A DNA stretch of 64,000 nt from Proteromonas lacertae (lineage: Eukaryota). Every line of letters begins with the position of its first letter. The first letter of the stretch is position 1. This document shows positions 1-37,236 of the stretch, one piece after another. Below the pieces are notes generated by a model. The model did not search any database, was not told the origin of the DNA, and saw only the letters and a program-made list of their open reading frames with translations. The stretch lies in NCBI GenBank assembly GCA_002245135.1, contig NGBS01000602.1, positions 1 to 64,000 of the forward strand, in the 5' to 3' direction. Both the position numbers and the translations under genes were made by a program.

Positions 1-456
1 TTGTTGTCTTGCCATAGCATTATAATCAGGTCTATTTGAATTAGCATAGATAGCAGAACCAAATAAGTGTTGTCATCAAGTTCTCTATAACTTCTTGCAA
101 TTGGATTTGCCATGCTATTACCTAATCTAAGAGAACTAGCTAGTTTGATCTACTGCATTTGTCTCTCTAATAGTTTCTGTTGAGAAGTGAGATCCATTAT
201 TTTTTCATCAAATTCATCTTTATTTTTGAAATTGCTTTTGTTCATTCATTTACCTAATATATTCTTTATTTCATCCAATTCAGTGTTTCTAGATCCTATT
301 CTTTTACTTAGAACATCATTGTAGTGTCATTATAGAATTTGCTGTAAAGTGATTGATAATATTTGTTATGCCATTAAAGCTATGCTTTCTTCTTTTCTTC
401 TAGAACACCTTTAATCCGCTTCTCTAAGAGCTTTTTTAACTGAGTTTTGTAACCAT
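1..456 (-). pseudogene. Disrupted viral ORF running off the window edge
   Basis: Coding-like segments (MNKSNFKNKDEFDEKIMDLTSQQKLLERQMQ*...) broken by stops and frameshifts; ATG at 456. Confidence 0.45.
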
Positions 457-500
457 TATAAAACAAACAAATATGAAGTGTATAGTTATTATGATAATTA

Positions 501-1078
501 TTACTTAACATAAATAGGCTCGATAGGCTCGCCTTTATTGGTCTTCCCATAATATCATTACTAATGGTTTTGATTCATTCTTCTGGCTCATCTCTTTACT
601 AGCATCTTTTGGTTTACGTTCTTTCTTTATTGATTAGATCCTTTCTCTAATTTCTTCATTAGTCTAGCATTCTTATCTCTTTCTTCTTTTAAAGCAATCT
701 GTAATTCTGCTTTAGTCATTCTGCTTGGTGGTAATGTATCCCACTATCTTTAGATCTCCGTTTACCTTTACCTTTTACTGGATTCTAAAGCATCTTTGTC
801 TTTCTTTGATCTTCTCTTTGTAGTAGGTGATCTTGAACGATGTCTCTTACGTTTGCTGTGTTTTCTATCACTATCATCGTCATCTTCACTTGGAGCATCT
901 TATATACTTTCTTTGGTGAACTCTTCATTAAGAACTGTTTAATCATCTCTTCACTTGGTTCACTAGGATCGATTCTTGAAGTTGATTTCATTTCAGGAAG
1001 TTTGTCTTCTAACTCACTCTCAGTTGATGTGACTGAACTTGTATCACTGGAATAATCATTAGATTCTGATTCACTCAT
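501..1078 (-). pseudogene. Frameshifted viral ORF (Ser/acidic N-terminus, coiled coil)
   Basis: ORF 785..1078 continues in another frame as MTKAELQIALKEERDKNARLMKKLEKG; last stop at 501-503, followed by a TGTTTGTT box at 462-469. Confidence 0.5.
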
Positions 1079-1161
1079 TTATTTCTATGCAAATTTTAAA
1101 AGCCGCCAAAAAACACAAAATTTAATAATAATAATAATATTTATGTAATTATGTCATTTTG

Positions 1162-1478
1162 TTAAGGTAAATTACATACGTCAACTTTTGTTTTTAAGTA
1201 TGCATTTAGTAACGCTTGTTGATTACTACCGCCTCCATTGAATGGCATTCTAGCTCCTCCTCTTCTTCATGTCTTCTTCTACGTCTACCGAATCCCACCT
1301 TTTCTAATGCATCTGCGATATTATCTTTACCAAACTCTCTTGCGATCTTTGAACCTATCTTGTGTTCTCTAGACCAATCGTAAGCTTTCTTTCCCAATTT
1401 AACTTTTCCCCACAATGATTTTAACACCACCTTGTGTCTTCTTCGATGTCTTCTATGTCTTCTACCACCTAAAACCAT
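1162..1478 (-). CDS. Arg-rich viral core protein precursor (pVII/pX-like), one apparent frameshift
   Basis: MVLGG-RRHRRHRRRH...KVGFG-RRRRRH. A 1-nt shift near 1268 restores RRGGARMPFNGGGSNQQ...LP* (stop 1162-1164). Confidence 0.7.
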
Positions 1479-1537
1479 TATGATAATATATTAAAAACCA
1501 ATAAAAAACAAAGAATAAAAAAACAAAAATTAAAGTA

Positions 1538-1979
1538 CTAAAGTACTCTTATCTTATTATCAGGATAACGATTAAGTGCATTATTACCACTATGACTGCT
1601 TTTTCTATGACGACGTCTTCTTGAACCTTTATTTCCTTTATAAATTCCACCAGGTCCTTTAATCCAATGTTTTTGCAGCTATTGAAAGACCGCTACCACT
1701 ATGACTTGCTTTCCATTTCAAGTATGGTTCGAGTGATTTTGGTCCACCCACTAAATCATATTTTGGATTCATCATACCACCTCTTCTACTCTTTCTATGT
1801 CTTCTACGACCATAACCTAATAACTTGGCAATACCACCAGTAAGTTTACCAGCCCATCCTGGAATCATACTTAAACCAGTTGATATTGCTTTAGTTTCTT
1901 TAAGTCCTTTATTTAAATCTCCCCAGAAACCTTTTCCTACAACACACTTGCGATATTTCTTTTTACTTTTCTTAGGCAT
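1538..1979 (-). CDS. Arg/Lys-rich viral core or membrane-lytic precursor, one apparent frameshift
   Basis: VVGKG-FWGDLNKGLK, LTGG, LLGYG-RRRHRKSRRGG, LVGG. A shift in the 5-base run near 1670-1674 restores KHWIKGPGG...SRRRRHRK...VL* (stop 1538-1540). Confidence 0.7.
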
Positions 1980-2045
1980 AATAATATTACAATTAATTAC
2001 TATATTGACATTATTGACATTACATTGACCATAAAATAATAAATT

Positions 2046-2444
2046 ATGTCAGACGGACCTATTCCTCAAAGAACTTTTTCAGGTGGTATAACTACACAGT
2101 TAGATGCTCAACATCCTATATATAAACAGCAGCCTTCTCAGACAGAACAAGAGACCCAAGCTGATCAAGAATTATATTCTACATTGAATAAGTTACCGCC
2201 AGAAGCTAAATCTATGCTAAACAGTATCAATGGTTTTTCATTCCAAGAAGCAATCAATGAAATAGTTAGAATTGTAAATCAAGTAGCAAATGAACCAGAT
2301 CCACAACCAGTTCAGCAACCTCAAGTAGTTCAGCAACCACCACCACCTCCACCACCTCCTACACCTCAAACAAATAACAATAATAATGCTAAACCTGCTT
2401 ATAATCCATATGCTTATAATAACATTGGTCTTATGAATGCTTAA
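2046..2444 (+). CDS. Viral hypothetical protein, Pro/Gln-rich
   Basis: Intact 132-aa ORF, divergent from the core gene. Confidence 0.7.
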   Translation: MSDGPIPQRTFSGGITTQLDAQHPIYKQQPSQTEQETQADQELYSTLNKLPPEAKSMLNSINGFSFQEAINEIVRIVNQVANEPDPQPVQQPQVVQQPPPPPPPPTPQTNNNNNAKPAYNPYAYNNIGLMNA

Positions 2445-2496
2445 CATAATTATTAAAAATATATTCGTTTTATTATTTTAAATTTTGTTTTGTGCT

Positions 2497-3018
2497 ATGA
2501 GCAACTCAAAAACAATTCACATTCTTCAGATTATAGACGATGATGTTAGCGATGCTGAGAAGGAGCAAAAAGAGGAGCAAAAACGAGATGATAAAGAAAG
2601 ATCTGCCAAAAAGAGAAAGAGAGAGTTAGAAGACGTCTACAATTATTTATATGGAGAGGCAGAGTGTACAGATAGTGAGGATGAGGAAGAAGATGATGCT
2701 AATGCTTCTGATGCCGATAGTGAAGGAAACTTGAAAGGCTTTGTTGTAGATAGTGATGATGACGATGAGGACTACACTATGGAAGAAGACGAAACAGATT
2801 TAAGTGATTGGGAAAATGACGAAGACTTAGAAGACATTTTGAATCCGAATGCTAGCTCAGAGATATGTACAACTAAAAGAAAGATTATGACTGCTATATC
2901 AGATTCATTAGACAGTTTAAACCCTAAAAAAAGAAAGCATTTAATCAAGCCTAACAAACAAGCCAACGGAAGCAATTCCTTTGATAATCAAGAGGAAGAA
3001 GTGTTAAGTGATTCTTGA
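2497..3018 (+). CDS. Viral acidic, probably nuclear protein
   Basis: ATG 2497; D/E tracts, DADSEGNLKGFVVDSDD motif, NLS-like KKRKR and PKKRK. Confidence 0.7.
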   Translation: MSNSKTIHILQIIDDDVSDAEKEQKEEQKRDDKERSAKKRKRELEDVYNYLYGEAECTDSEDEEEDDANASDADSEGNLKGFVVDSDDDDEDYTMEEDETDLSDWENDEDLEDILNPNASSEICTTKRKIMTAISDSLDSLNPKKRKHLIKPNKQANGSNSFDNQEEEVLSDS

Positions 3019-3065
3019 GCTAATTAATTAATTAATTCTTTTTTTTTATTTTTTACTTATTGTTT

Positions 3066-3617
3066 ATGAGTAATATACCCATAAAAACAGAATCTATACC
3101 ATTACCTCCACCTCCTGCACCTCCAGCTAGATCACCTATACTTATAATTAGAGACGATCCAGAAAATAAAAGACCTGCTCCTTCAAATGAAGATCCTATA
3201 GATGTTTTAGAAAGCCATGCAGAGAGTAGATTACCAATAGGTATTGAAGGTCCAAGAGTAATTGCTAGTATTGAAGAAATACAATACACATTGGAATTAT
3301 TTAAGTTATCTTTATCGAAATTCAAACCAAGTCTTAGAACATTGAATAGTTTAACAGCAAATCAAGTAGATTCATTATGTAAAGAAATAGATTTAATTAT
3401 AGATCTTACAGAAAATCAATCAGTTCCTTATAGTACAATAGTAGGTGCAATAAGAAGATTACTCATTATGTACAATCAGTATTTTAGAGATAACTGGCAC
3501 TTGGAAGCTAATCAGAAATTGTATTTCAAAGTTTACTTATTTACCCAATTTGAAAAAACATGTTTCAATTTCTATAGTTCTTTAGTTAATATAGTATATG
3601 TAAATGCTTTTAATTAA
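3066..3617 (+). CDS. Viral hypothetical protein
   Basis: ATG 3066; its stop abuts the stop of the convergent ORF at 3618. Confidence 0.7.
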   Translation: MSNIPIKTESIPLPPPPAPPARSPILIIRDDPENKRPAPSNEDPIDVLESHAESRLPIGIEGPRVIASIEEIQYTLELFKLSLSKFKPSLRTLNSLTANQVDSLCKEIDLIIDLTENQSVPYSTIVGAIRRLLIMYNQYFRDNWHLEANQKLYFKVYLFTQFEKTCFNFYSSLVNIVYVNAFN

Positions 3618-4031
3618 TTATTTGGTTTCTTTGATTTTTGTGTAAAGATCTAATTCTTCCAACAACACTTTGATAACTGAACCATACTCGTTAATATGAT
3701 ACTTAGGAGGAGGCATCTCTAAGTTTACTGCATATTGTTTAACCAATTTTACAAACCAATCGAATAGATTCTGAGCTTCAACTACTATTGTGTCTGGAAC
3801 TGGCTTTCTCATCTTATTAGCATACTTATTAATATGTCCTAACAATAATTGAGATACACTATTAAATTTGGTAATGTCTTCATTCTTACATATGATATAG
3901 TTTTGAGCTGCAGTCTTAATTAAACCTAGGATAGTTTCAATAAATGCTCTAAGCACATTGATTTCTTTAACAAATAAATATACTGGTTTCTTAGCTCTCT
4001 GCTCTATTACAAATATACTATCTGAATCCAT
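3618..4031 (-). CDS. Viral hypothetical helical protein
   Basis: Intact 137-aa ORF. Confidence 0.7.
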   Translation of the reverse strand: MDSDSIFVIEQRAKKPVYLFVKEINVLRAFIETILGLIKTAAQNYIICKNEDITKFNSVSQLLLGHINKYANKMRKPVPDTIVVEAQNLFDWFVKLVKQYAVNLEMPPPKYHINEYGSVIKVLLEELDLYTKIKETK

Positions 4032-4180
4032 TTATGTTGAAGAAGGGGGTATGAAAATATTCTATTAAAAAACCGCTAATTAGCATATTCGCGCTTCAAG
4101 CTTCAAACCATAAAATGCATGAAACGGATATAAAATCTTAATTCTAACATTTTATTGGATATCTAATAATCATAATAATC

Positions 4181-4927
<747 letters not shown>

Positions 4928-4970
4928 ACAACAAAATGAAACAAAGAAGATTAATTAAAATTATATTGAA

Positions 4971-5828
4971 TTAAAATCCAGATACTCTTTTTTTATAGGG
5001 TAGTATTATTGATTGAGGCACTAACATACAACTATAATCAAAGGTAGTAGGAAACTTATTTTCTTCAGTGCATAAACTAAGACAATCTTGAGCTCCCCAA
5101 TTAATTAACTCTAGTGTGTGATACTTACCGCTATTCGTTTGAAATACTAAATCTACAGTAAATTTTTCATTATCTTTATCTGGGTTGGGATCTTTACTTA
5201 TATCTAAATGAGGAATTAAGTTATTGATAAATCTTGACATTTCACCATTATCACATTTTGTTGTTAGATCAAAATGTAAAATTGTGCTACTATTTTCCTT
5301 AAATTTGTAATAATTTAATATATCTATTTTCAAGTATTGCTCATAAGCTTCAAATCTTGTATAAATGTATTTTGTTAAGGAAGTAAGTTCACCATTTAAA
5401 TACATGTATAATCTATCATCTATTCTCTTTATTAATTTATTCTCATCATCTCCTTTATGTGCATCATACAATTTCTGTGTAAAATTCCATACAGAGTCAT
5501 TGAGAGTATATGGATCACCTAAATATGTTCCTATATCACTAATTCCACCAGCTGTTGGATCATTTGATATTTTTTCATCGATAATTCTTAACAAATCATA
5601 CATGCTCTCTTCATATTGATCTAATTTCGTTTTACCAATAACATTAACAACACTTTTAATTGATTCAGCATGACTAATAGTTGTTACATCAATATCTTCT
5701 AGCATTTTTCTAATTGTCTTATCACTATCATCTTTCTTACCTAAATTGTTTGTTATCGTTATAATAGACTTAGTTATAGCACCTGTATCTATTGAAACAG
5801 CTTGTTTTTTTAAGGGACCACCAAACAT
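4971..5828 (-). CDS. Viral protein starting MFGG-P (candidate protease-matured virion protein)
   Basis: Likely start is ATG 5828, because the longer ORF overlaps the ATPase. MFGG fits the (M/I/L)xGG adenain consensus. Confidence 0.7.
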   Translation of the reverse strand: MFGGPLKKQAVSIDTGAITKSIITITNNLGKKDDSDKTIRKMLEDIDVTTISHAESIKSVVNVIGKTKLDQYEESMYDLLRIIDEKISNDPTAGGISDIGTYLGDPYTLNDSVWNFTQKLYDAHKGDDENKLIKRIDDRLYMYLNGELTSLTKYIYTRFEAYEQYLKIDILNYYKFKENSSTILHFDLTTKCDNGEMSRFINNLIPHLDISKDPNPDKDNEKFTVDLVFQTNSGKYHTLELINWGAQDCLSLCTEENKFPTTFDYSCMLVPQSIILPYKKRVSGF

Positions 5829-5877
5829 AAAATATAATAAAAGAATGATAAAAATTAAGTTACTAGCATTATGAGGA

Positions 5878-6726
5878 TTATTCTGAATCATCATCAGTAT
5901 CGGACGAATCAGAGGAAGAAGAGGAGGAGGAACTAATGCTGGTATTTTCATTATCACTTTTATAACCATTACTATCGTTTTTAATTTTCATATTAAAGTT
6001 TACACGAAATTCATGATTGCACAAATCGATGTAGAGGAATGAATGATTACTGTAGTTAGTTGCATACTTGTAATATTCTCTAAACTTACTGAAATCTACC
6101 CACAAATCTAAACTATTATGAACACTGTGTAGATTAGCTAAACTTAGATTTCTAAATACTAAGCAATAATCTAATTGTAGACGAACAGATGGTGTTAAAT
6201 CTGTAACATATTGACTTGATATAATTACTTTTGACTTGTAATGACGGTTTGATTTGAGTAGTTTTGAAACGGTCTTATTTGATAAATCGAATGATATATC
6301 ATCGAATATAAAGATATTTTCAGGATAACTATAATTGTCTTTATCAACATCTGTGATATTATTCAATACTGCATCTAATACATTCACTTTATCTTCATTT
6401 ACTATTGAATTGTAACAATGGTATTCTATTAAATTGTACTTCAGCATATCAGTGATCTTTTCATAAATAATATCCTTTGAAATTGTTCCTACAAAGAAAT
6501 ATACAGTTTGATCATAATTCTTCTTTAACAAGTGTTGTATCATGTTAAATATAAGCGTTGTCTTTCCACTGTTCTTCTTAGCTAATATAAATATATTGCA
6601 GAAAGGCTCTTCAAAATAATCATAGCCTAAAACAGTATCTCTTGATCTCTTTTTATTACCTTTGACTACTGATTCTACTGGCGTTATGACAACGTCATTA
6701 CATTTCTCTAGTTTTATTTTACTCAT
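5878..6726 (-). CDS. A32/FtsK-HerA family genome-packaging ATPase
   Basis: Walker A variant FILAKKNSGKTT, Walker B IFIFDD, and the NRHYKSKVIISSQ (Arg finger/Gln sensor) motif typical of Polinton/PLV/NCLDV ATPases. Confidence 0.93.
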   Translation of the reverse strand: MSKIKLEKCNDVVITPVESVVKGNKKRSRDTVLGYDYFEEPFCNIFILAKKNSGKTTLIFNMIQHLLKKNYDQTVYFFVGTISKDIIYEKITDMLKYNLIEYHCYNSIVNEDKVNVLDAVLNNITDVDKDNYSYPENIFIFDDISFDLSNKTVSKLLKSNRHYKSKVIISSQYVTDLTPSVRLQLDYCLVFRNLSLANLHSVHNSLDLWVDFSKFREYYKYATNYSNHSFLYIDLCNHEFRVNFNMKIKNDSNGYKSDNENTSISSSSSSSSDSSDTDDDSE

Positions 6727-6790
6727 TTAAAGAAAAAACAAAAAAACAATTATATAAAGAATATAACCATTATGTTAGTTATTAGTTAGT

Positions 6791-8248
6791 TTAAATAACG
6801 CTTACAATTCCACTTCCATTGATTGTACACATTCTTCCTGTAACTATATAGAAACGATGAGTGATATTAAAGTTAGTGAAATCATTTGTACCAGGAGTAG
6901 ACAACTCAAAAGTGATCTTTAAGTCACTAGCTAATGGTCTTCCTGATTGATTCTTGATATTATCCAAGTCTTTAGATCCAAAATTCAAAATTTCAAAGAA
7001 CTTCTTTTCAAAAGGAATATGTCTTTTGAATATATCAAACCATGAATCTTTGAAATAATCTTGTATAGTCATGTAACTATCATAATACTGCATTAATGAA
7101 TAGTCTGGTTGATACACAAAATCGTTAATCATCCATCTGAATTGTGCATTTTCAGGAATTACTGCATATCTATTTTCTGCTGTGCCACCACTCATATCAT
7201 GTGCTGTTTGATTTCCTTCGATCCATGGTCTATAGATAATGTAACGCAAGAATGGTCCATTTGAACTGTTTAATGTAAAGGAATAGTTAAATTGTCCAGA
7301 TCCACCTTGATTTACTGTTAATGTATGGCACTTTACATCATTGAACTGGATTGGTTTAGATAAACAGTAACTTCTTGTATTGTTATTACATTGAGTATCC
7401 TTATTCAAATAAGTATAGAAATAAAAGTTCTTGAATTTAATTGAATCTGGTCTTATTCCATCTGCAGGCCAGTTTATAGTTGTTTCAACACCTTTATCAT
7501 TATAAAAACCCATAATTTGTCCAAATTTAGGAGTTTGCTGGAAATTGAAACATAAATACATTCTCTCTCCAAAGAATACATCACTTTTCATTGATAAAAA
7601 TGTATTGTAAAATTTACCTAAAAACATCTTTACATGAATAGTATTAGACTTCTTATACTGTTGATATTTATCTGTTGTTCCAGTAGCTGTAACAAATGTA
7701 GCTTCTTCTTTATCCATTTCCCATTCATTTTCATCAAGAATTAAATGATCATGGTATTCATCATTCCATTTTAATTGAATTCCATCATAATAGTTTGATT
7801 GGTAAAAAATGTCTGATCTTTTTCTCACTAATTCATCCATAAACACTCTATAGTGTTCATAATTGTCATCAAGCTTTACTAGATCTGTTCCTGTATTATT
7901 ACATAAACGAAATGCTGCTAATCCAAATCCTTCTTTCATTCCTTTTATATACTTTGGATATAACTCACCACTAGCTGCTACTTTACCACAACCATCAATT
8001 TTTGCAAATGCATTTGCAGCAGCAAGTGGATGAGTTTCAATTTCGATATCATATTGAATGTAAGACTTTGCAAGGTTTATAATGTTCTCACCACTTAATT
8101 CGAACCTTATTTCATCTGAATAAGTATTATCTTTAAGTTGATAGAATGATTTTGTTTCCATTGGTGTCAACTTGACATACTGATAAAAGGCCATCATTGC
8201 TGGAACGTCTACACCGTGTTTTTGCTCTTTTGGGATAGTTAGAGACAT
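6791..8248 (-). CDS. Major capsid protein (double jelly-roll, Polinton/PLV type)
   Basis: ~485 aa from ATG 8248. N-terminal EIRFELSGENIINLAKSYIQYDIEI pattern, beta-rich, located between the penton and ATPase genes. Confidence 0.82.
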   Translation of the reverse strand: MSLTIPKEQKHGVDVPAMMAFYQYVKLTPMETKSFYQLKDNTYSDEIRFELSGENIINLAKSYIQYDIEIETHPLAAANAFAKIDGCGKVAASGELYPKYIKGMKEGFGLAAFRLCNNTGTDLVKLDDNYEHYRVFMDELVRKRSDIFYQSNYYDGIQLKWNDEYHDHLILDENEWEMDKEEATFVTATGTTDKYQQYKKSNTIHVKMFLGKFYNTFLSMKSDVFFGERMYLCFNFQQTPKFGQIMGFYNDKGVETTINWPADGIRPDSIKFKNFYFYTYLNKDTQCNNNTRSYCLSKPIQFNDVKCHTLTVNQGGSGQFNYSFTLNSSNGPFLRYIIYRPWIEGNQTAHDMSGGTAENRYAVIPENAQFRWMINDFVYQPDYSLMQYYDSYMTIQDYFKDSWFDIFKRHIPFEKKFFEILNFGSKDLDNIKNQSGRPLASDLKITFELSTPGTNDFTNFNITHRFYIVTGRMCTINGSGIVSVI

Positions 8249-8279
8249 CAGAAACTCAAAATAAAAAATAAAATAAAAA

Positions 8280-9245
8280 TTAGACTTTAAATACGACAAT
8301 ATCTAAATTAAACTCGATATTATCAAGATTGAGTTCATAACCATTTTGTTGAGTAATCTGAATAGTAATTTGACCATTGGTATAAGTATTATTGAACATT
8401 TTGCTAGTATTAAGAATGTCATTGTTCTGGTATGTAATGAATGGTAACTCAGGGTTTGCTATTGGTATATTTTCTAACACATTTGAATCTTGAATAATGT
8501 TTACAATATCTAAACGAATGGATATTGAATTAACCCATATAAGTGATGGACGATATGGTAATTGAGTAAATGGGAAATCTACTGAAAATGCAGCTATAGC
8601 TTTTTCTGTTCCTTGAGGTCCTGGAACAAATTTATCATAACATAACCAATAGTTATTATTTGGAATACCTAATATCTTGTAGGCTAAATCTTTTGTTACT
8701 ATTTCTATTTCTGTAATCCAGAAAATAGGTTTTGTTAAACTATATAATGCATTCATTTTACTTGCAATTTTTAAATGTCTGGTATGTTCATCATCTTTAT
8801 CATCTAGCTTAAATAAATCACCATTACCTTCTATTACAGGTGTATATAGCATATCCTTAACTATAAACAAATCATCATCAGGAATTTCAAAATCTAAATA
8901 TTTTATTGAACGTATTCCATCATTGATTAACTTAATAATCTGATTCTCATCATAAAAACCTTCAGGAATTTGTACTGATACACATACTGTGGGTTTTTCT
9001 GGCGCTGCGCCATCTTCTTTATCATAATCACATGTAAATAAGAACTGAAACGTATCGTTTGTCTCTGCTTGTATAGTAGGGAAAGAATTAGGGACAACTG
9101 CGTGTAATAACGACACATGAGTATAATCTTGATCAAATGATGGTAAGGCTAAGGTCTTTTTGTATCTATTCCCTACTCCGAATGTCCCTGTAGTCATTAC
9201 CATATCAGAATTTAAATAGTATACACGGTGATTAGAGACTAACAT
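8280..9245 (-). CDS. Minor capsid protein (penton, single jelly-roll with insertion)
   Basis: ATG 9245. YYLNS...VSLLHAVVPNSFPTI at the N-terminus and ITIQITQQNGYELNLDNIEFNLDIVVF at the C-terminus match the PLV/virophage minor capsid pattern. Confidence 0.85.
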   Translation of the reverse strand: MLVSNHRVYYLNSDMVMTTGTFGVGNRYKKTLALPSFDQDYTHVSLLHAVVPNSFPTIQAETNDTFQFLFTCDYDKEDGAAPEKPTVCVSVQIPEGFYDENQIIKLINDGIRSIKYLDFEIPDDDLFIVKDMLYTPVIEGNGDLFKLDDKDDEHTRHLKIASKMNALYSLTKPIFWITEIEIVTKDLAYKILGIPNNNYWLCYDKFVPGPQGTEKAIAAFSVDFPFTQLPYRPSLIWVNSISIRLDIVNIIQDSNVLENIPIANPELPFITYQNNDILNTSKMFNNTYTNGQITIQITQQNGYELNLDNIEFNLDIVVFKV

Positions 9246-9308
9246 TTTGATAAAAAATAATAATGTCAATATTGGTAATATTAGTAATATTGACACTATT
9301 TTTATTTT

Positions 9309-9932
9309 ATGGAAGATAATAAAAAACCTAAACATAGAACAGTTCCATTCAAATTAACAGAATTAGACAAACAAGTAATCATCAGAAGCTTCAGAAAAGA
9401 CGGTAAAATCAGAGCTCCCACAAAATCGAAATTATATCATTTAATTTCAGGATCAAAATCAAGACTTACATACTCAGAGATAAGATATATATTGAAATAC
9501 ATCGAAGATGAGTACAAATATTACATAGAATCAAAGTTTAAGACAGGTTGTTTTAATGGACCAATCATTGAACAAGTAAAAGTACCTCTTAACGCGCCAA
9601 AACTAACCGCTTCAAGCTTCGCTCAAGCCTTAAGTAAACACAAAGAACACAGAATTGCAGGTCAAAAGAAGACAAGAATGATGTTAGAGCAGATTTTAGC
9701 ATTACATAAGAAGGAAGAAGAGGATGTTTTACCTCCACAAGAGATAATTGACATAAAAGATGACGAAATTAAGGTAAAAGAAGAGGTAAATTACGTAAAA
9801 CCTGTCACAAAATCGAATGTAAACAGTTTAAGTGGTTTAGAAGACTTGTCTCCTGTTAACTCAGTTCCTAGTTTAAGTCCAAAATCAATAACAGATAAAA
9901 GCATTATAAGACCTAATTGTATTATTTTTTAA
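9309..9932 (+). CDS. Viral basic hypothetical protein
   Basis: Intact 207-aa ORF, divergent from the penton gene. Confidence 0.7.
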   Translation: MEDNKKPKHRTVPFKLTELDKQVIIRSFRKDGKIRAPTKSKLYHLISGSKSRLTYSEIRYILKYIEDEYKYYIESKFKTGCFNGPIIEQVKVPLNAPKLTASSFAQALSKHKEHRIAGQKKTRMMLEQILALHKKEEEDVLPPQEIIDIKDDEIKVKEEVNYVKPVTKSNVNSLSGLEDLSPVNSVPSLSPKSITDKSIIRPNCIIF

Positions 9933-9978
9933 TTTTTTTGTTAATTGATTTAAAATTTTTCTTATAGGGAACGATATA

Positions 9979-10200
9979 ATGACAATTTTACTCTCTGTAT
10001 TAGTATTTATACTCTATATGCTCGCTCTGGCACTGTACAAATACTTCAAAGCACACAATTGTATTCCAAATGAGGTAGATATCGCAGACATTCGTTCAAA
10101 TATGACCGATATGATGGAGAAAGGCTTGCAGCATGACAAGACATTGGAAGATATAAAGACATATATAGACATTGTGAATAAAAGAAAGCACACAGTTTAA
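9979..10200 (+). CDS. Small viral membrane protein
   Basis: N-terminal hydrophobic helix followed by a short coiled coil. Confidence 0.65.
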   Translation: MTILLSVLVFILYMLALALYKYFKAHNCIPNEVDIADIRSNMTDMMEKGLQHDKTLEDIKTYIDIVNKRKHTV

Positions 10201-10251
10201 ATAATTTGTAACGAATTAATTTTTTATTATATAATAAACGGCTATTTTTTT

Positions 10252-10321
10252 AGGGAAAGTGAAACGACTCATTATTTAGGGAAAGTAAAACGAGTATTTT
10301 TTCAGGGAAAGTAAAACGACT
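10252..10321 (+). repeat. Three direct repeats AGGGAAAGTRAAACGAST, 26-bp period
   Basis: Copies start at 10252, 10278 and 10304. Confidence 0.9.
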
Positions 10322-10750
10322 ATTTTTTCTTTAAAGAAAATAAAACTCATTATTGAGATTCGAACGCGTTTTCATCATTTAAATAGCAACGGTTAAACCG
10401 TCACACTAAATAATTGCCAAAAATAAAGTATAAGTGACGATTCATTTTGTACAATGTCGATTGAAGAATAATTCTCAATCGTTGTGCCAAAAATAGAATA
10501 TGAAGAAATTTCTGAGAAAATTCAAATCAATTTTGACGAGGTTTGACTTGAACGGTCGGTTTGTGCATCAAACTTCAATTTAATTTGAAAAACAAGAAAT
10601 TGGCTTGCAAATTCATTTTGAAAATAATTATTTGGCTTGTCCGAAATGAAATTGAAGAACCGTTTCAGAATTATTGTGTTTCGTCATTTTTGAAAATGAT
10701 GAAACGGCATTTTAGGCAAATTTAAAAATTTGAATTTTTGAATTTTTAAA

Positions 10751-10845
10751 TTTCGCGCGCTCTCTGTCTAAAATTTGAATTATTTAAAAAAACTAGGAGT
10801 TTTAATAATTTAGCGCGAGCTAGCTTAATTGGTTTTCGCGCCAAA
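10751..10845. promoter_or_regulatory. E2F-type sites upstream of the last viral ORF
   Basis: TTTCGCGC at 10751 and TTTTCGCGCCAAA at 10833-10845. Confidence 0.55.
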
Positions 10846-10964
10846 AACTATTTTTTAGTTATAATGATTAGTTCAAAATAGAATTTAAATTTTATATAGG
10901 AATTCTATACTATTCATTCAAATCTATTTTGAAAAATACAATTAATCTTAAAATTATTGAAAAA

Positions 10965-11249
10965 ATGTCTTCACCCATTAATCCTAAAGAAGCAGTTGAT
11001 TTAACAACTGAAAACAATGAACCTTGTATAAATACACATTCAAATTATTTTTCAGAAGCGCATTTCATCATCGATTTAACCAATGACGATGATGAAGTGC
11101 CAAAGAAGCGCAGTTACGCTGTCATGACAACCAACGGTCGCACAAAACGTTACAAAACAAGAACGGTTACAAAAATGCGAACAATTGATGAACAAGATTT
11201 ACCTGAAGAAGAAGGACCCATCAGTAGATTAATTAATTCAACTCATTAA
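10965..11249 (+). CDS. Small viral protein with two SIM-like motifs and an NLS
   Basis: ATG 10965; AVDLT, FIIDLTNDDDE, PKKR. Confidence 0.65.
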   Translation: MSSPINPKEAVDLTTENNEPCINTHSNYFSEAHFIIDLTNDDDEVPKKRSYAVMTTNGRTKRYKTRTVTKMRTIDEQDLPEEEGPISRLINSTH

Positions 11250-11426
11250 TTGTTTTTATGATTGAATTATGACTCTAAATGCTTTTTTTGATACTTTAAA
11301 AAAAAAACATAAAAAAAACTGTGCATGAGCACAGGCCCGTACTCGCCATACTTCAAATTTTAAAAAAGCTTGATTCACAAACCGCCAGTTTAAAAATTCA
11401 AAAAATGAAACGGCTATTTTTATTTT

Positions 11427-11487
11427 AGCCTCGGGTCCAGCGTCAAGCCTCGTGGTCTAGCGTCAAGCCATTTTGGGTCTGTAGCCC
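11427..11487 (+). repeat. GC-rich subterminal tandem repeats
   Basis: AGCCTCGGGTCCAGCGTCA, then AGCCTCGTGGTCTAGCGTCA, then a degenerate third copy. Confidence 0.8.
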
Positions 11488-11615
11488 TTAATATATATTA
11501 TTATTGTCTTCATCACACCTCCTACATTAGAATTAAATCACATTTTAAGTTTTGGGTTATTCAAAATTTTGATAAAAATCAAATTTCGTTATTTTTGTTA
11601 TATATTTACATAAAG

Positions 11616-14359
11616 ATGATAATAAAAGTGAATAAAGCAATAAGAGAAGAGGGGTATATTTTGTGTTTATTTTTATGATAGATTATGTCGAAAATTGGTT
11701 GAAAGTGGTTTTGGTGATATAGAAGTGAAGATTAGAGATAATCGAATAATGTCAATCAAATCAATTTTAGTGAATGGAAATGAGACTGTAAAGAAACTGT
11801 TGTTAGATCGTGAGTTTGTTGGAGTTTTGGAGTTATATGAAGAAATCGAAGAAATTGGCTATTATGAGATGGAGAAATACTACAGTGGTGGTGAACTGAT
11901 AATGTGTAAAGAGAGTGTATGTGAAGTGTTGATGTTTTGTTTATGTTATTGTGAAAAAGAGATAATAAATGATTGTTATGAATTTGTGAATAATAATATA
12001 GATGATGAAGTATTAATGAAATTAATTCATATGTGTAATGTATTTGGTGGATGTTTGAGAGAGATAGAAGAATTGAAAAATATGGAAATAGAAAAGCGAG
12101 GATATAAATATTTATATAAGAATGAATATTTGTTGAGATTAGAAATGAATAATTTGATTGAGATATTAAATATGAAAGATGTGATAATAGTGAATGAGTT
12201 ATGGTTATTAAATCGGTTATTAGAATGGTATAAATTCCAAAAGAATAAGAAAGATAATAAAGAGATACAAGATGATTTTAAACATTTGATAGAAGAAGAT
12301 ATCGATTGTGAAAAGATAAAAGAGAAAGAGATAGAAAAAGAGAATAAAGAAATGTTGAAAGAAATGAAAATAGAATTAAATAAAATGAATGTAAAAATCA
12401 TATAGAATTATATTGTATAAAAGATGAGAGAATTCAAAATGTAATAATAAACAATTACAATGAAGATAATGAAGAAGACTTTAATGAAGAAGAAAGAGGA
12501 ATATTGGATAAGATAGAAGAAGAAGAATTGAGTGATGAAATAATGTGTATATTAGAAATGAATAATATAAAAATGATCGAGATAGTATTGATGATAATGA
12601 AATATAAAAATGTAAAAATGGAAAGTATAAATACTAAAAATATATTTAAATAGAATATATCTCAAATACAGAAAAGAGAAATCTATTGGAAAGATTATGT
12701 ATGGAATACAATGAGAATAAAAGAAATCGAACAATGAAATGTTTATGTTTATTTGTTGATGATAAAAAGAATATTTCAATAATAGAAGAAGTATGTGGAA
12801 AAGAGATTCTTTTAGAATATTGAATGAAGATAATTATTTAAACTCCAAATCTAAAGAATTATTAATCCAATATATAAAAGAGAATAAACTGAGTTTCGAA
12901 GAAGAAGAAGAAATGATAAAAATAATGAAAGATAAAGAATTATTGAGTGAATTAAAAACAAAAGAAATCACCTCATTTTCATATCCTCAATCAGAATATT
13001 TATTTGGAATAAATGAAGAAATATCAATAATTCCTTTATGTGATGGAAATCGATGTGAATTTTCAGTCAATCCTTCATTGCCAGATGGAATGATGATAAA
13101 TAAAGAGAATGGAATAATTAATGGAAAAGTTGTCGCGCGCGATAAAGAAATTTGCGCGGTAAAGGAAGTAATAAGTTTCCATTAAAGTGAATATGTTAAT
13201 ACTTATTTGGAAGGCCGAGTAAATATAAATATAACATTATTTTGTCTACTAAATTACATATGTTGAAATTGTTATCAAGTTTTCAATAAGATTTATATCA
13301 TCTATTATTAATCTTTGTAATTATTTTTTTATTTAAATCGCTAGAATATATTAGCATATATGTCTTATTATCATATTGATATATATATAGCACCCTTTAA
13401 AAAAATATTAAAGAAAAAAGAAAATACGTTCAAGCCTTCTTCAAGCCAATATTTTATTTTTTATTTCAAACCATCGTAACATCGATTTTGTTTAATCTTT
13501 TCATCAAAGAACTGTTTATTTCAATTTCTTCCTGTGATATATGCAATAAAAATAATGTTAAATGATAGAAATAATTAAGATGGATATAAAGTGAATATTT
13601 ATGAATAATTGAACATAACTATTGTATATGACTGTTATAAGACAAAATGATTATATATTCATGCATAGCGTAATGACATTAACAATAATATTATATTAGA
13701 TCTAAATATAAACAATTACTTCCTTTATCGCGCAAATTTCTTTATCGCGCGCGACAAAAGTTGATAAAAAAATCGAAAAGAGAGAATATGAAATAAGTTG
13801 TAAGAATATTGTAAATGAAAAGAAAATCAAAATATCATTAGAATTCAATGATTTTAAATTCACAGAATTAAACAAAAATAATGGAATAACAATCTCAAAT
13901 AATTGAAAATTAATTATTAATAAATTCTATGATCATCGTCATTGTTATTTGAATTTGAAAATGGAAAATGGAGTTTATCATATCAAATATAAATTTCATC
14001 AAAATGGAAGTTATTATGATAGTATGATGTTAGGATTATCAACTTATAATACATATTCTGGTGATGATATTGATGAACAATCAACAACATGTAATTATTA
14101 GGCATAAAATGGTAAAAGTCAAGATATTAATGATTATTGTCATATTGGAAGAGTTGTTAATAAAAATCCAAATTTCAATAATCATGGAGATGGTTCAATT
14201 TATGAAGTGATAGTTGATATGAATAAAAGAGAATTTTGGATAAGTCATAATGATTCATCTCCTGTTTTACTTGTTAAAGATTTACCTTCTCCATTATATC
14301 CATATGCGTCAATAATAGGAAATAATGCTTCAGTTATACTATTATCAGTTTCACACTAA
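11616..14359 (+). pseudogene. BTB-like + Ig-like (He_PIG) + SPRY-like pseudogene, MITE-interrupted
   Basis: Exon 1 MIIKVNKAIREEG, then a BTB-like region and the LPDGMMINKENGIING motif. The frame resumes after the MITE; several in-frame stops. Paralog at 40914-43040. Confidence 0.7.
13131..13756. mobile_element. 626-bp MITE with TGT...ACA ends (Ginger2/TDD-like)
   Basis: 42-bp TIRs (13131-13172 and 13715-13756, 41/42 identical); 5-bp TSD AAAGT at 13126-13130 and 13757-13761. Confidence 0.93.
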
Positions 14360-14381
14360 AATTAAAAAAATCATTATTTCT

Positions 14382-17300
14382 CAGGGTTGTATAAATAGGT
14401 AACCTATAGGTTATAGGTAAAACCTATAATTTATCTTTGACTGTCAGTCGGTCAAACCTCGAGCATTATTTTGTTAAAATCTATTTAAATAACTTATTGA
14501 GTTACATTTGTTTTATACAAACTACCATACTATATAAAATATTATTCCTGCTTCTTGTTTTACTTTAGTTACTATAGTTATGACTAAGATTGGTTGAAAT
14601 TGTATAAGTATCTATTCTGATACATTATATTAATCTACAAATTACTCAATAGTGATATTTAACATATTTATAAACAACTTGTTATTTGATGATTAAGTTA
14701 TGTTGATTACTATCTCTAAAAACAAATATTGATGTAATTATAATAATAAATCTCTATTTGTGGATACACTATAAAAATTTTCTAAGTGTATTTTTTGTCT
14801 TTTTTGTCTTTTTTCTCAATAACCATAAGGAATTAAAAAGTAAAATTTTACCATAACATGAATTATATGTTAGAATATATGATAGTGTAGTTAGTTTCTA
14901 AATTACCTAATTTAGGTATCTTATCTCTTTATTGCATATTTATATATATATAGTCATAGCTACTAACATAACATAAACAAAATCTTTTGATTTTCTTTCT
15001 AAGGTTATAAAAATTAAATACAGTTTGAAGTGTTTTAACCTTAATACAACGTATTCCTTATTTGGGAACTTAAAACCATTGATATTTTTTTGTTGGCATC
15101 GGACACTAATTTAAAGGGTTGTGGTATAGGCCATTTTTGGATTGAGAGAAATTAATTTTGATGAGTAAATTTGGCTTGTTAGGCGATATTATGTGCAGAT
15201 CGTAAAAAGTATTCATATATGGATCAGTTATCAAGTTATTTCCCCTCAATTCCCTGTAGATATGAAGATATTAGCTTTTTTTATATTTACTTGCTCCCAC
15301 CTTAGTAGCTGTATTACACTATTTAACAGCATATATAAACATCATAAATATAATAAAATAATTAAATAACTGTTCTAAACTATTACTGATTCTTAAATTT
15401 CTCTAAAAATTTCTATACAACCTATTGAATATATAAATTAATAATATATACTTTATATAAATGTCATTTCTAATGCAGAACCAGCATAAGGTAATCTATT
15501 TTATAGAATCATAATCATATACTTTAGTAATGATAGAACTTTATTAAATATCTTCATATTTCATGAATTTAGTGATACAAAAATAGTATTCACTATAATT
15601 TTTATAAATTATATTAAATATTATACTTATAAATGTGAATTGATAGCTCTTTAACCTTGATAGGTAGATATACTATATTTCCTGTTTTCTTTATAGTTAT
15701 AATACTGATCATAATCTTTAATATTTTTCATTCCTCTAACACTATGTCTTACTTTCTTCCCACCTATTTTCCTTACATAACTATTACATGATCGGCAGTA
15801 ATACTTGGAAGATACAAAGTTATGATAATTCATTAACTTTATCACTCCAGGCATATCTCCAATAAACGAAATACAATACACATTATAAAACTCACTATCA
15901 ATCTTAATTCCATCTAAAAATAAGTCATTGAGTTCTTTGCATATTTTGTATGAAAACACATAAACAACATTATTATTTGTACTAAATATACTCTTTTCTA
16001 CTCCATCAAGGCTTATTACTATATTTTGTCTATTCTGTTTATGTTTATAGAGTTATTACATTTTTCAATTGATGAACTAATTATTGGAATTTCTTTTATA
16101 TTTGTCAATAAATAAACTAGACTTTCTTTAATGCTAAGATAATTATCCTTATCTGGATTTGGCAAAATATTATCTTTAATTACTTTACTCTTTAATGATT
16201 TGAAAGTTCTGCAGCTTATAAGATGAATACTAGATAATTCTTTTAATAGAATTGATGAATTGACATTAGAAATATAATTCTTTATAAAGAATTTGTATAA
16301 ATATGACATTAATCTATACTCGTTATTACTTGCATTTTCATCATCATCTTCCACTTCACTATCTTCATTATCTTAGTAAAATACTAATCAAAAAATCAAT
16401 TAAATAAATTCAATTAAGTTTGTTATTACATTGACAATGTAAAGAATATATTTTACCGATTTATTTTTTTCAATTTACTCAATTAGTTCAATCTATTCAC
16501 TCGTTTTTTTGTATAAATTAAACTATGTAAAGTAGATATAACATATAAATAGATGTAATATAGGTGTTTATTCAGTATTTGAACATATTTATTATAATAC
16601 ACATACACAGTATATATAACAGATTCAATATATTGTATTGGCTTAGACCAATTAATATTATAAGTTTAATAAAATTATTTACCACTTCTCAAAATCCATT
16701 CTAAGTTATATGAAGGTTAAGCGATAAAAATATTACCATGCCTTTAATTTTGTTTGTTGTTTAGAAATATATATATAAAATAGTAAAAATTTAAGAACTT
16801 GAGAAATTTGTTCATATTTTTTTAGACTGCAAGTGCAGCTTTTATTTTATGGTATAATTTAACTTAGTATGTACTGTACTTTAAGTTTATATAGTTAGTA
16901 TTTATATTTCACTTCATTAAAAAAACATCAAAAAATAGAATTCTTTGTTTTATAGCTATATATAAAGCAGAATATGAGATCACTATATATACAAAAAATC
17001 TTATCTTAATTTAATCTCTAACATAATGAAAAAAACAAAAGAAAAAGGTATAAAAGTCAAATATTGACAAACCAGATCTGAGCCAAGTATTGTAATCCTA
17101 TTTGCAAAATGAAATTCAATGTGAATTATTTTTTATAGTGTATTAATGATTTGTCTTCAATAAGTCTCTTACTTTCTCAGTTTCTGAAAATAAATAATCA
17201 TTATAAACCTCTCTTCGAGAGTTATACTATATCCTAGTTTGAAGCAAAACATTCTAAATACTGGTGAGTCTAATATTGTGGTACTGACTGAACTGAAGGT

Positions 17301-17716: not shown

Positions 17717-18795
17717 TTAATATTAATCTTTCAGTATAACCAATAATAATACCGATAAAACAATTATTACCACTAATAACATCAATATATAATTGTATTT
17801 TCCATAAAAATTATTAGCCTGCAATAGTATCTTACACTCACGTAATTCTTCTTGGCTAGACGCAAATACTAATGCAGAATTTAAGTATTGATCCGCTTGG
17901 TAACGTTTTTTCTATTTCATTAATAACTATGTACAGCTATGTATATATACAAGATGGAAATAAATTTTACCAATATTTAAGCGACATTGATATCTTTCTT
18001 CGTTTGTAGAGGCAAATATTAAAGCAGTTTTAAAATAATCTATCGATTCTTCACATTGGCCCTATTTCATTAATAAATATATATAAATATATACTATATA
18101 GAATTTACAACTACCTATAATAAAGTTACATGAGTACTTATCTTCATTTGAAGAGGCATATTCTAAGGCATATTCATTGTATTCTATTGCTTTTTCACAT
18201 TTTCCCTATTTCATTAATAACTATGTAAGATATGTATATATACAAGTTTGTAATAAATTTTACCAATATTTAAGCGACATTTAAATCTTTCTTCGTTTGT
18301 AGAGGCTAATATTAAAGCAGTTTTAAAATAATCTATCGATTCTTCATATTGGCCCTATTTCATTAATAAATATAAATAAATATATACTAAATAGCATTTA
18401 CAACTACCTATATTTAAGTTACATGAGTACTTATCTTCATTTGAAGAGGCATATTCTAAGGCATTTTTATAGTATTCTATAGCCATAACATAATTCCCCT
18501 AAAACTATATCATTATATATATACTAATTCAAAATATCTGTTTGCTTCATCATATTCTTCATTGAAATTTACATATTTCATTTTTATTAATAGTTTATTC
18601 ATACATTCATAATCTTCAATAGATTCCAAAAAACTCAAAATTGAGTTAATTACATCTTTTAAAGAAATATGATTAACATATAAATCAACTAACTTATGTA
18701 AATCATCTATAAACACATCTTTGTTGTTTTTTAATTCTACACGGACTTCTTCAGAGTAGAGAGGTTCTTCTTGATTTTTTGATGGAAAGAATATC

Positions 18796-28170: not shown

Positions 28171-28794
28171 ATGAATGTGAAACAAATCAAAAATACTCAT
28201 GTATACTTGTTTAATGATTAATTTAAATAGCTTTTAGATACAAATGAAACAAAAAAGACACTATTAGCAAATATTGAAGTTTTATTGAAGATATTAAGCA
28301 AAACATATGGACCTAATGGAAAGTATACAATTTTAATTATGTCAATAGTATAATAACGCTTCAACCAAATAATAAAAACAGATACATAGAAATGACAACT
28401 TGTTCATCAGTAATTCTTGACAGTGATTGTTTTACATCCATGATTATTATGAAAATACTATATCCAATATACCACATACCAATTTTGAAATATGGTGATT
28501 GTGGTACTTTTTCACTCCTATTTTGTTTATCCTTACTTAAGAATACTCTTAATACTACTTATCATCCTATTATAGTTAGTAACATTTATAATCAAATATT
28601 AGAATTGTGTATAAAACTCTTTTCATCAGAATTATTCAAAATCGAAGTATCTTGGAGTAAATTAGAACCACTTATATCACTTATATCAAGTATAATAGCA
28701 TCAAAGTCCAGTATAATAATCACTCCAGAAGAATTAAGAGAAATTTCAACTCAATTAATTACCTCATTTATATATTGTCTAAATCTACCTAATG

Positions 28795-28834
<40 letters not shown>

Positions 28835-29895
28835 AATATGTATTATAAATAGCCAAAAAATGGAATTAACTTTATAACAACAATCGGATCACTTCATCCT
28901 AAATTAACAACATATAATTCAACTATATTTATAGATATGTCATTACCACTATTATATCCCAAACATTATGAAAATTGTAATGTCATATTATACGATATAT
29001 CACTAATGTCACCAAAATTAGAGATAGAAATAGAAAATGATTTAGAATATTCATATTCAATGGAAGAATCTGAAGAAAATGAATTATTAGTAATTGGAAA
29101 TCAATTAATTAAATATAATATACAAATATTAGCATCTCAGAGAATAATTCATCCTTTTTTAAAATCATTTTGTTTTGAACATCATATATTATATATAGAA
29201 AGATTATCTATTAGATATATTGAGTTATTTCGTAATATGAGTGGTGCAGTGATTATAAGTAGATGGAATGAAGAAATAAAACCATCTTATATTGGAAGAA
29301 TTGATGAATTGAATGAAGTTGAAATATATTCACATAAATATATAAAAATAATTAAAAAAACGAATATAATAACACCAATTTCAACTATTATTGTCTCTGC
29401 TTCAAATACAATTGAATTGAATGAATTTAAAGCTGATAATTAATCAAATATTATCTGTTTTAATAACTATATCGAATATACCATATGTTGTTAGTGGCGG
29501 TGGTTGTTTTGAATCAATGTTAATAAATGAATTAGAAAATAAATTTAAAGATCAAAAAGGAGTTGAAAAGAATATTTCTTCTATATTTATCGATAGTTTG
29601 AAATTCACTTTAGCTAATTTGTGGAAAGTGATTGTGGATGATGCGGATGAGATTATACAACAAATATTGTTGAAGAACATTGTAACAAAAGATAAAATTG
29701 TGTTATATGGTTTTGATCCAGTTGAAAATGATTATTTCATTGCTGTAGAAGCGAGTAAGAATAATAATGGATATATTGCTGATAAAATCAAAGGCTGTTG
29801 ATTGTTATGAAGCAAAGATTTCTTTGTTTGAAATAGCTGTATCAACTGCAATTACAATATCTAGAGTTCGTACAGTTGTTTTGAATAAGTCTTAA
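28171..29895 (+). CDS. MKKS: Chaperonin-like BBS6/MKKS (spliced; two apparent +1 homopolymer frameshifts)
   Basis: TYGPNGK, YGDCGTF, ASQRIIHPFLK...IERLS, VSGGGCFE. Confidence 0.75.
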
Positions 29896-36900: not shown

Positions 36901-37236
36901 TTTAGTAGAAATGAAAGTTCTGATTTAGCTTTCCAATCTATTCAACATATGAATCCATCAGCTCCAAATACGATCATGAGAACTTCAAATCAGCCTGGTG
37001 GTAGTAGTAACAGTAGTAGTGCTGGTGCTGTAAGAATAACCAATTATGCATCACATGCTCACTTACTTATGAGTGATTCTTGTAGATCTATACACAACAC
37101 AATGAAAATAACCAATACTAGTAATGTTCCTACTCCAGGTAATATTACTGCTGCTTTGAATAATATTAAAGAACCAAGTGCTGCTTCTTCAAAGTTGAAT
37201 GATACAATCTCACCTGTTGAGCCTTTCAATAGTTAA
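33961..37236 (+). CDS. Cache-domain 7TM-RGS receptor-like protein
   Basis: Signal-peptide exon 33961-34019 and 27-nt intron. Cache-like YITPPY...IGIISSDM, ~7 hydrophobic helices, RGS box (EENIYY...IIDRYIKDGSKYQINIS). Confidence 0.8.

Follow-up and report, generated by a model that had tools for sequence, protein, structure and literature searches.

Positions 1-11523 of the analysed window, a 64,000-nucleotide stretch of DNA, form a compact foreign gene block. This block is probably the right arm, with the capsid genes, of a double-jelly-roll (DJR) DNA virus, likely of the Maverick/Polinton type, inserted just upstream of a BTB gene in the genome of what is probably a Proteromonas-type gut stramenopile. 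Endogenous DJR viruses are well known in protist genomes. The Polinton/PLV-type identity proposed in the initial annotation of this DNA is upheld by a predicted DJR major capsid protein (MCP), a probable penton and the motifs of an ATPase (Table 1).

Table 1. Features of the viral block and the first host gene to its right
Feature	Position	Strand	Remarks
Broken coding stretch	1..1078	-	Ser/acidic, Lys/Arg-rich and coiled-coil-like pieces; frame switches; runs off window edge
Arg-rich small protein, K+R 29%	1206..1478	-	Putative DNA-condensing core protein
Basic small protein, K+R 24%	1659..1979	-	Putative core or membrane-lytic precursor
Pro/Gln-rich ORF, 132 aa	2046..2444	+	
Acidic ORF, D+E 31%, 173 aa	2497..3018	+	Two NLS-like KKRK motifs
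ORF, 183 aa	3066..3617	+	
ORF, 137 aa	3618..4031	-	
ORF, 248 aa	4181..4927	+	Perfect CAA (polyGln) tract at 4702-4802 after N-terminal part
Candidate virion protein, 285 aa from probable start	4971..5828	-	Fourth gene of capsid cluster; start and function putative
Probable FtsK/HerA (A32-like) genome-packaging ATPase, 282 aa	5878..6726	-	Motifs
Predicted MCP, 485 aa	6791..8248	-	AlphaFold2 and Foldseek
Probable penton, 321 aa	8280..9245	-	ESM Atlas match, 8 homologues
Basic ORF, 207 aa	9309..9932	+	Divergent in orientation from capsid cluster
ORF, 73 aa	9979..10200	+	N-terminus hydrophobic
Right terminal arm, virus-like composition, CpG-rich	10201..11523	.	Candidate terminal inverted repeat
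ORF inside arm, 94 aa	10965..11249	+	Two (V/I)DLT motifs and basic tract
CCTCCT	11518..11523	+	Candidate terminus of (NCT)2 type; chance rate ~0.15 such motifs per 100 bp
Host BTB/BACK-family gene	11616..12405	+	First right of junction; paralogue at 42188-43033

Extent, composition and right end of the block

The block is gene-dense, with a GC content of 30.5% against 25.6% in the remaining window and a GC3s of 0.196 against 0.136, and (AT)4 runs occur twice in its 11.5 kb versus 32 times in the 52.5-kb flank. It holds 19 ATG ORFs of at least 60 aa, four of them nested or antisense, and the other 15 together with the broken coding stretch at 1-784 agree with the approximately 16 intron-less ORFs counted initially. 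As had been noted, no polymerase, integrase or protease was matched in the window, either in Pfam, searched with all 15 viral ORFs, or in PHROGs and NCBIfam (14 of the 15). Searches of IMG/VR and JGI contigs returned no related loci. The Blastocystis motif TGTTTGTT was enriched in neither part (three in 11.5 kb, nine in 52.5 kb), and ATTGAC, present at both divergent promoters, was dropped as a signal because its frequency of 0.69 per kb compares with 0.71 per kb in the host.

A compositional boundary lies at about 11.5 kb. The right end had been placed at 11523, and a Markov model trained on 2000-10200 versus 16001-64000 put the change point at 11485, i.e., 38 bp away, with host-like composition from there. 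The arm leading to it, described earlier as repeat-rich, contains tandem repeats of 26 bp (3.6-4.2 copies, 10236-10346) and of 20 bp (2.2 copies, 11427-11469), and no partner copy of it was found within the window. We take the (V/I)DLT motifs of the ORF inside the arm to be SUMO-interacting-like. Motifs of the (NCT)2 type have the same density in arm and host (0.15 per 100 bp), and CCTCCT is weak taken singly. The BTB gene, whose paralogue was recovered by tblastn at E 5e-14, has its probable start ~90 bp from the junction.

The left edge is rich in errors, which suggests that the contig end is poorly supported, and the virus DNA could be real but free or co-cultured and fused to the host contig by mis-assembly. 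We regard such a fusion as very improbable, as the boundary is sharp and lies at a terminus-like motif after the repeat arm, the probable start of the neighbouring host gene is left in place, and the figures given in PMC10120064 put the family at ~11% of the Proteromonas lacertae assembly, with some copies >100 kb into contigs.

Capsid cluster and small basic proteins

The penton, MCP and ATPase ORFs are each unbroken, adjacent and all on the - strand, as originally described. Prediction of the MCP structure from the single sequence gave a pLDDT of 30, and a 92-row alignment was needed for a usable AlphaFold2 model (pLDDT 85.3, pTM 0.86). The jelly roll expected for this unbroken ORF appears in the model as a double-jelly-roll fold, with a Foldseek E value of 1.5e-12 against the PDB. 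In VIA, the structural match reached a Z of 22.3 (340 aligned, rmsd 3.3), and NCLDV-type chains scored Z 19-22 versus 15-16 for virophage MCPs, those of Sputnik and mavirus being among the matches. By sequence, no capsid was matched in PDB, Pfam, PHROGs, NCBIfam or phage records; the only Pfam matches in the capsid searches were T4 Y03C in 1 of 92 sequences and a weak delta-endotoxin beta-sandwich in 3 of 9. In the MCP tree, the window MCP and 15 close Logan relatives split from 20 distant rows with an SH-aLRT of 100.

The adjacent ORF likely encodes the penton, as annotated, judging by one language-model match of the Sputnik type: its top ESM Atlas cluster, at a score of 0.98, was 'Sputnik minor capsid V18/19', the family being assigned to 26% of its members, with an Atlas recognition of 2026, which is under the 2300 mark of the tool and weak by its own scale. 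Pfam and PDB sequence searches with the penton alignment found no capsid family. The ORF as listed opens at 9335, and the start was set at the position common to all eight homologues, which are 46-62% identical.

All four A32-like FtsK/HerA motifs were found in order in the presumed ATPase (a variant Walker A at aa 49-56, a Walker B at 138-143, Arg 161 and Gln 172), corresponding to the set of Walker A, Walker B, Arg finger and Gln sensor given for packaging ATPases in PMC11703096. The protein is thus likely an A32-type packaging ATPase. It matched phrog_2666 in PHROGs at E 2.3e-5, the P-loop/FtsK matches in Pfam were below threshold, Pox_A32 was not matched in Pfam at E<=1, and no family exceeded the threshold in Pfam or NCBIfam. 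The fourth protein of the cluster opens from its probable start with a strict protease-type site; PDB sequence searches with 4971-5828 and 4181-4699 returned chance-level matches only.

The two small basic proteins are weakly similar to each other. The one at 1659-1979 carries four adenovirus-protease-type sites, three of them strict, against 0.97 in shuffles (P 0.009, uncorrected), and the one at 1206-1478 carries a single site near its start with V at P4. Over three candidate ORFs, six sites were observed versus 1.6 in shuffled sequences, a comparison that is post hoc, since the ORFs were picked after the sites had been seen, V was permitted at P4 and 15 ORFs were tested. The MCP likewise carries three such sites (P 0.028). 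We consider the putative cleavage sites in the Arg-rich small ORFs a candidate new lead.

We hypothesize that the intron-less viral genes would be transcribed in the nucleus by host RNA polymerase II, and that the linear genome would be copied from terminal repeats by a protein-primed polymerase encoded to the left of the window. The shell would be built from MCP trimers and pentons, with the DNA pumped in by the ATPase. The Arg-rich proteins could serve to condense the DNA, an Ulp1/adenain-like protease could trim them at sites of the Gly-Gly type, and new copies would be inserted by an rve integrase.

State of the copy and viral affiliation

The term intact, used initially for the capsid module, holds for approximately 2046-10200 only and fails for 1-2045, where stop-free pieces change frame repeatedly. 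The coverage by ATG ORFs of at least 70 aa drops from 95% in the former region to 43% in 1-2045 and 0% in 1-784, and 785-1078 is the sole ATG ORF of the broken stretch. Such a pattern would fit a decaying remnant of the same virus, with an open capsid cluster, broken genes to the left and no virions formed by this copy alone. This is somewhat unlikely in our opinion, because four long adjacent ORFs are unbroken and frameshifts in such elements are, according to section 7 of PMC10120064, often assembly artefacts. Moreover, frame switches with no intron are likewise seen in a chaperonin-like gene of the host (28.2-29.9 kb), which suggests that the assembly itself contains indel errors. The frame breaks in 1-2045 are possibly errors of this kind.

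With the Maverick/Polinton viruses (Polintoviricetes, including the Gosseviruses of protists) the block shares the predicted DJR MCP, the probable penton and the A32-type ATPase, its AT-rich and intron-less character, protease-type sites in basic proteins, and a candidate end motif made of a trinucleotide repeated twice. However, the end would here be (AGG)2//(CCT)2, whereas vertebrate Mavericks end in (AGT)2//(ACT)2 (PMC8097293), no sequence-level link leads from the MCP to any Polinton MCP model, and none of pPolB, rve, protease, left TIR and target-site duplication lies within the window. A replication module on the left, as initially proposed, is supported indirectly by genome-wide counts for the presumed host, the P. 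lacertae proteome containing 172 viral-type pPolB, 60 A32, 54 rve integrase and 79 Ulp1 protease entries, with 0 for tyrosine recombinase and one for SF3 helicase (PMC12129017 Table S5). The abundance of pPolB, rve and Ulp1 together with the lack of tyrosine recombinase therefore suggests that the missing left arm is likely of the Maverick/Polinton type.

The same counts argue against an integrated PLV of the Aquintoviricetes type, or a virophage-like element in need of a helper, with helicase/primase and tyrosine recombinase, which would replicate only with a giant virus. Like the block, the virophages Sputnik and mavirus have a DJR MCP and a penton-like protein. Sputnik V18/19 is the nearest named cluster for the penton, the MCPs of both virophages are among the fold matches, and a 2026 preprint places Proteromonas MCPs among PLVs. 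On the other hand, virophage MCPs score structurally below NCLDV-type chains, none of the 92 aligned MCPs matches a Pfam model of virophages at E<=0.01, and the MCP is, at 485 aa, shorter than the named virophage entries of full length (577-606 aa). In the clustering reported in PMC10120064 (25% identity over 30% length), the P. lacertae MCPs are assigned to a 'new' cluster separate from that of virophages. We thus find a PLV or virophage origin clearly unlikely.

The Blastocystis MELD virus resembles the Maverick/Polinton-type element proposed here as a gut Opalinata-associated midsize DNA virus with PolB, integrase and virion genes, the last visible by HHpred only (PMC8502044). It differs in its probable host, and the BFVD fold matches include a single capsid labelled 'MELD virus sp.', perhaps that of the Blastocystis virus, which is 10% identical to the MCP.

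Host and known viruses of Proteromonas lacertae

The host had been called Blastocystis/Proteromonas-type; the Proteromonas part of this assignment stands, while Blastocystis is disfavoured by domain counts and by IMP3. A 2556-aa ORF at 48669-56339 with periplasmic-binding repeats and 7tm_3 (E 5e-20) represents a class-C GPCR-like receptor. The GPCR family 3 C-terminal domain is counted 116 times in P. lacertae and in none of eight Blastocystis genomes, and the periplasmic-binding domain 182 times versus 0-1 in Blastocystis (PMC12129017 Table S5). The host is therefore probably not Blastocystis. The IMP3 of the window shares 59% identity with its counterpart in Blastocystis sp. Blastoise, which is no nearer than unrelated eukaryotes are, and in a tree of the query plus 39 of the 120 hits listed, 38 of which were picked for names or rank, it grouped with three Logan proteins only, apart from named taxa.

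The novelty first attributed to the element was overrated. In 2023, Bellas et al. found P. lacertae to contain 285 endogenous MCP genes, which form one new cluster (PMC10120064 Tables S1, S3 and S4), and the window MCP likely belongs to this family. Compared by eye with the MCP printed in Table S3, it has seven motifs in identical order, with identities of, e.g., 11/14, 9/10 and 6/6 residues; the motifs were composed with both sequences in view. Each occurs in 4-9 of 13 close MCP relatives, whereas among 92 distant MCPs a three-letter motif occurs in 14, one other in a single sequence and the remainder in none. Both proteins have PBCV-1 6ncl_d2 as a Foldseek neighbour (7-9% identity), and the host domain profile agrees with the window; the printed MCP differs in length (450 aa versus 485 aa). 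Since the capsid genes of apparently the same family had already been counted, the element illustrates a known kind well and does not represent a new one. Gene maps, pentons, ATPases and termini of P. lacertae elements were not found in the main texts, and the value of the block is that it provides an annotated member of a lineage otherwise known from a table, with a probable penton and ATPase, a candidate right end and basic core-like proteins.

Virions have so far not been seen for Maverick-Polintons (10.64898/2026.06.19.733378), and a host that has unbroken capsid clusters, and whose genome is estimated to consist to ~11% of such elements, would be a reasonable place to seek them. Only tentatively do we propose that the Proteromonas elements could form a distinct Polinton lineage that is still active in the animal gut, with an NCLDV-leaning capsid, all genes of the Maverick set, and core proteins that resemble those of adenoviruses and are matured by an adenain-type protease. 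If so, a culturable protist would provide a system to look for Polinton virions. Close relatives of the IMP3 are present on 34 Logan contigs, yet the closest MCP relative found is only ~70% identical, and the copies of an active lineage would thus be isolate-specific.

Capsid module of the probably integrated virus

The initial annotation placed an integrated Polinton-like virus with an intact capsid triad of major capsid protein (MCP), penton and ATPase at the left of the window, and structure prediction bore out its MCP. The AlphaFold2 model (pLDDT 85.3, pTM 0.86) matched PBCV-1 Vp54 in Foldseek (E 1.5e-12) as well as iridovirus, Sputnik and mavirus MCPs, with identities of 8-10%, and a BFVD Foldseek search also returned similar proteins. 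VIA-align scored a PBCV-1 capsid chain at Z 22.3 (340 residues, 3.3 A); faustovirus, ASFV and D13 reached 19-21 and virophages 15-16. On this predicted fold we regard the MCP assignment as established. The eight MCP homologues (32-69% identity) all come from Logan, and searching 1.84 billion representatives with a profile yielded 120 proteins at E<=0.001; for the alignment, the query was joined by 91 proteins, mostly of full length, drawn from both searches. A tree built from the query with 15 close and 20 distant rows split the close from the distant set at SH-aLRT 100. Environmental proteins of 430-530 aa, distantly related to the family (E 1e-11 to 1e-3) and free of Pfam capsid matches, may represent an unclassified PLV group.

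The rest of the triad stood at lower strength. The penton candidate has eight Logan homologues (46-62% identity), and in the ESM Atlas it scored highest (0.98) with the cluster 'Sputnik minor capsid protein V18/19', a family named on 26% of the cluster members with a recognition of 2026, below the tool's mark of 2300. Sequence searches (Pfam, PDB) matched no capsid family, and it is graded as a likely penton. The ATPase candidate shows a variant Walker A, a Walker B, an arginine and a downstream glutamine, following one another as PMC11703096 describes for packaging ATPases of the FtsK/HerA type, with family matches that are sub-threshold or indirect only.

Features of the window discussed in the text
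Feature	Position	Strand
Virus block	1-11523	
Arg-rich ORFs	1206-1478; 1659-1979	-
Perfect 33-copy CAA repeat (polyGln) within a viral ORF	4702-4802	
Gene after the ATPase	4971-5828	-
ATPase candidate	5878-6726	-
MCP	6791-8248	-
Likely penton	8280-9245	-
Right terminal arm	10201-11523	
Small ORF in the arm	10965-11249	+
CCTCCT end	11518-11523	
Inverted repeat	13130-13201 / 13686-13757	
ORF pieces	15651-16372	-
Degenerate tandem repeats	17847-18501	
Chaperonin-like gene	28247-29895	+
dCache-TM-RGS protein	34021-37236	+
Fused receptor ORF	48669-56339	-
Receptor region	48669-61526	-

Composition and boundary of the virus block

The first description of the block proved accurate, except that 1-2045 is not intact. 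Positions 1-16000 hold 23 ATG ORFs of at least 60 aa, 19 of them within the block (15 after removal of nested and antisense frames), and 2046-10200 is 95% covered by ATG ORFs. Coverage drops to 43% in 1-2045 and to 0% in 1-784, and the stop-free pieces of 1-2045 shift frame. A decayed virus copy is therefore possible, but the host chaperonin-like gene also shifts frame without an intron (apparent switches near 29430 and 29800, which suggest indel errors of the assembly), and breaks of this type are reported in PMC10120064 (section 7) to be frequently artefacts.

The block differs from the rest of the window in GC (30.5% vs 25.6%), GC3s (0.196 vs 0.136) and (AT)n runs (2 vs 32). Blocks of 400 bp were scored with a Markov model of order three that had 2000-10200 as virus and 16001-64000 as host training sequence. 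All four blocks in 10001-11600 came out virus-like (+0.019 to +0.032 per base) and all five in 11601-13600 host-like (-0.022 to -0.051); host blocks averaged -0.020 (SD 0.013, maximum 0.021, n=119), and the cumulative maximum fell at 11485. The arm contains 26-bp and 20-bp tandem repeats. A chimeric join of virus and host DNA seems unlikely, given this clean boundary and the reported abundance of the P. lacertae MCP family. The closest MCP shares about 70% identity, yet near-identical host IMP3 occurs on 34 Logan contigs; an insertion specific to the isolate would explain this contrast, and so would repeats poorly assembled from short reads.

In the small ORF of the arm, (V/I)DLT occurs twice, together with a basic tract; we take these to resemble SUMO-interacting motifs and an NLS, and the ORF product is a candidate antagonist of SUMO-linked silencing.

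Relation to known elements and proposed cycle

The block is a real and well-supported arm of an endogenous DJR virus, which most likely belongs to a family already tabulated for P. lacertae. For this species, Tables S1 and S4 of PMC10120064 place 285 MCP genes in a single 'new' cluster and estimate the elements at 5.7 Mb, about 11% of the assembly; its tables leave the MCP count blank for 10 Blastocystis assemblies, and the main text, as far as available, does not mention Proteromonas. The P. lacertae MCP printed in Table S3 (450 aa, ColabFold/Foldseek-confirmed against PBCV-1) shares with the window MCP seven motifs in the same order (residues 54, 154, 223, 282, 320, 372 and 416 of the latter), composed with both sequences in view and compared by eye. 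Among 13 close relatives each motif occurs in 4-9, and five of the seven motifs are missing from all 92 distant proteins. In the Polinton literature consulted, Proteromonas MCPs appear only as points of a network plot, and literature on Blastocystis with Polinton and P. lacertae with virus yielded no gene-level description, although the P. lacertae genome paper may contain one. A Blastocystis MELD virus has PolB and integrase (PMC8502044 section 10); neither genus name occurs in the available supplement text of that paper.

Replication and integration genes were not found in the window. The P. lacertae proteome has 172 viral-type pPolB, 54 rve integrases, 79 Ulp1 proteases, 60 A32 and 0 tyrosine recombinases (PMC12129017), the gene set that defines Polintons in PMC11161782 and 10.64898/2026.06.19.733378. 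Provided that the host is P. lacertae-like, these counts, which are genome-wide and not tied to this copy, predict such genes outside the window; the recombinase and helicase counts make a PLV or an element dependent on a helper less probable.

Two local hints agree with the Polinton gene set. The CCTCCT end, a trinucleotide given twice, resembles vertebrate Maverick ends (PMC8097293) and adds little weight, since motifs of this kind have a local frequency of 0.15 per 100 bp. In the two Arg-rich ORFs and the gene that follows the ATPase there are six sites of the adenovirus protease type, (M/I/L)XGG-X or (M/I/L)XGX-G (PMC7998265), against 1.6 in shuffles (P 0.002), in a post hoc test involving 15 ORFs and allowing V at P4 (four of the six are strict). 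ORF 1659-1979 alone has four against 0.97 (P 0.009), and the MCP likewise has three. As a lead from sequence, the three products could be precursors of core proteins that a viral protease would mature. In the Polinton-type cycle we propose, the host would transcribe the viral genes in the nucleus, DNA would be copied from its ends by protein-primed replication, the capsid would assemble before ATPase-driven packaging and proteolytic maturation by the viral protease, and the rve integrase would mediate integration.

Host flank

The flank is intron-bearing eukaryotic DNA with kinases, IMP3, CWC25, BTB genes and tRNA-Ala. Its divergent chaperonin-like gene matches Cpn60_TCP1 and no solved CCT or thermosome sequence, presumably resembles MKKS/BBS6, and has a very short first intron candidate (about 26 nt). 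In a table of PMC12129017, MKKS/BBS6 has one entry for P. lacertae and none for Blastocystis.

The large receptors of the flank carry domains expanded in P. lacertae. One ORF (2556 aa) fuses five periplasmic-binding stretches to a class-C 7TM domain (7tm_3), and exons resembling it continue upstream as far as about 60.2 kb; the dCache-TM-RGS protein (1071 aa) is another very large receptor. In Supplemental Table S5 of PMC12129017, P. lacertae has 116 GPCR family 3 C-terminal domains (0 in each of 8 Blastocystis strains), 182 periplasmic-binding domains (Blastocystis 0-1) and 75 RGS domains (Blastocystis 2-3).

Among the 120 matches listed, IMP3 shares 59% identity with its counterpart in Blastocystis sp. 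Blastoise, a value that unrelated eukaryotes also reach, and 97% and 76% with Logan proteins; its tree joined it to no named taxon. On these grounds the host probably belongs to Proteromonas or a near relative of it; other flagellates that have receptors of this type are less likely candidates. A possible MITE lies in the first host gene region: an inverted repeat of 72 nt (79%) that contains CGCG motifs and has its arms 484 nt apart. Two ORF pieces lacking Pfam matches, one with CxxC pairs, lie in gene-poor surroundings and give the impression of a possible transposase remnant, and degenerate 144/293-bp repeats beside a kinase are probably a TPR-like coding array.
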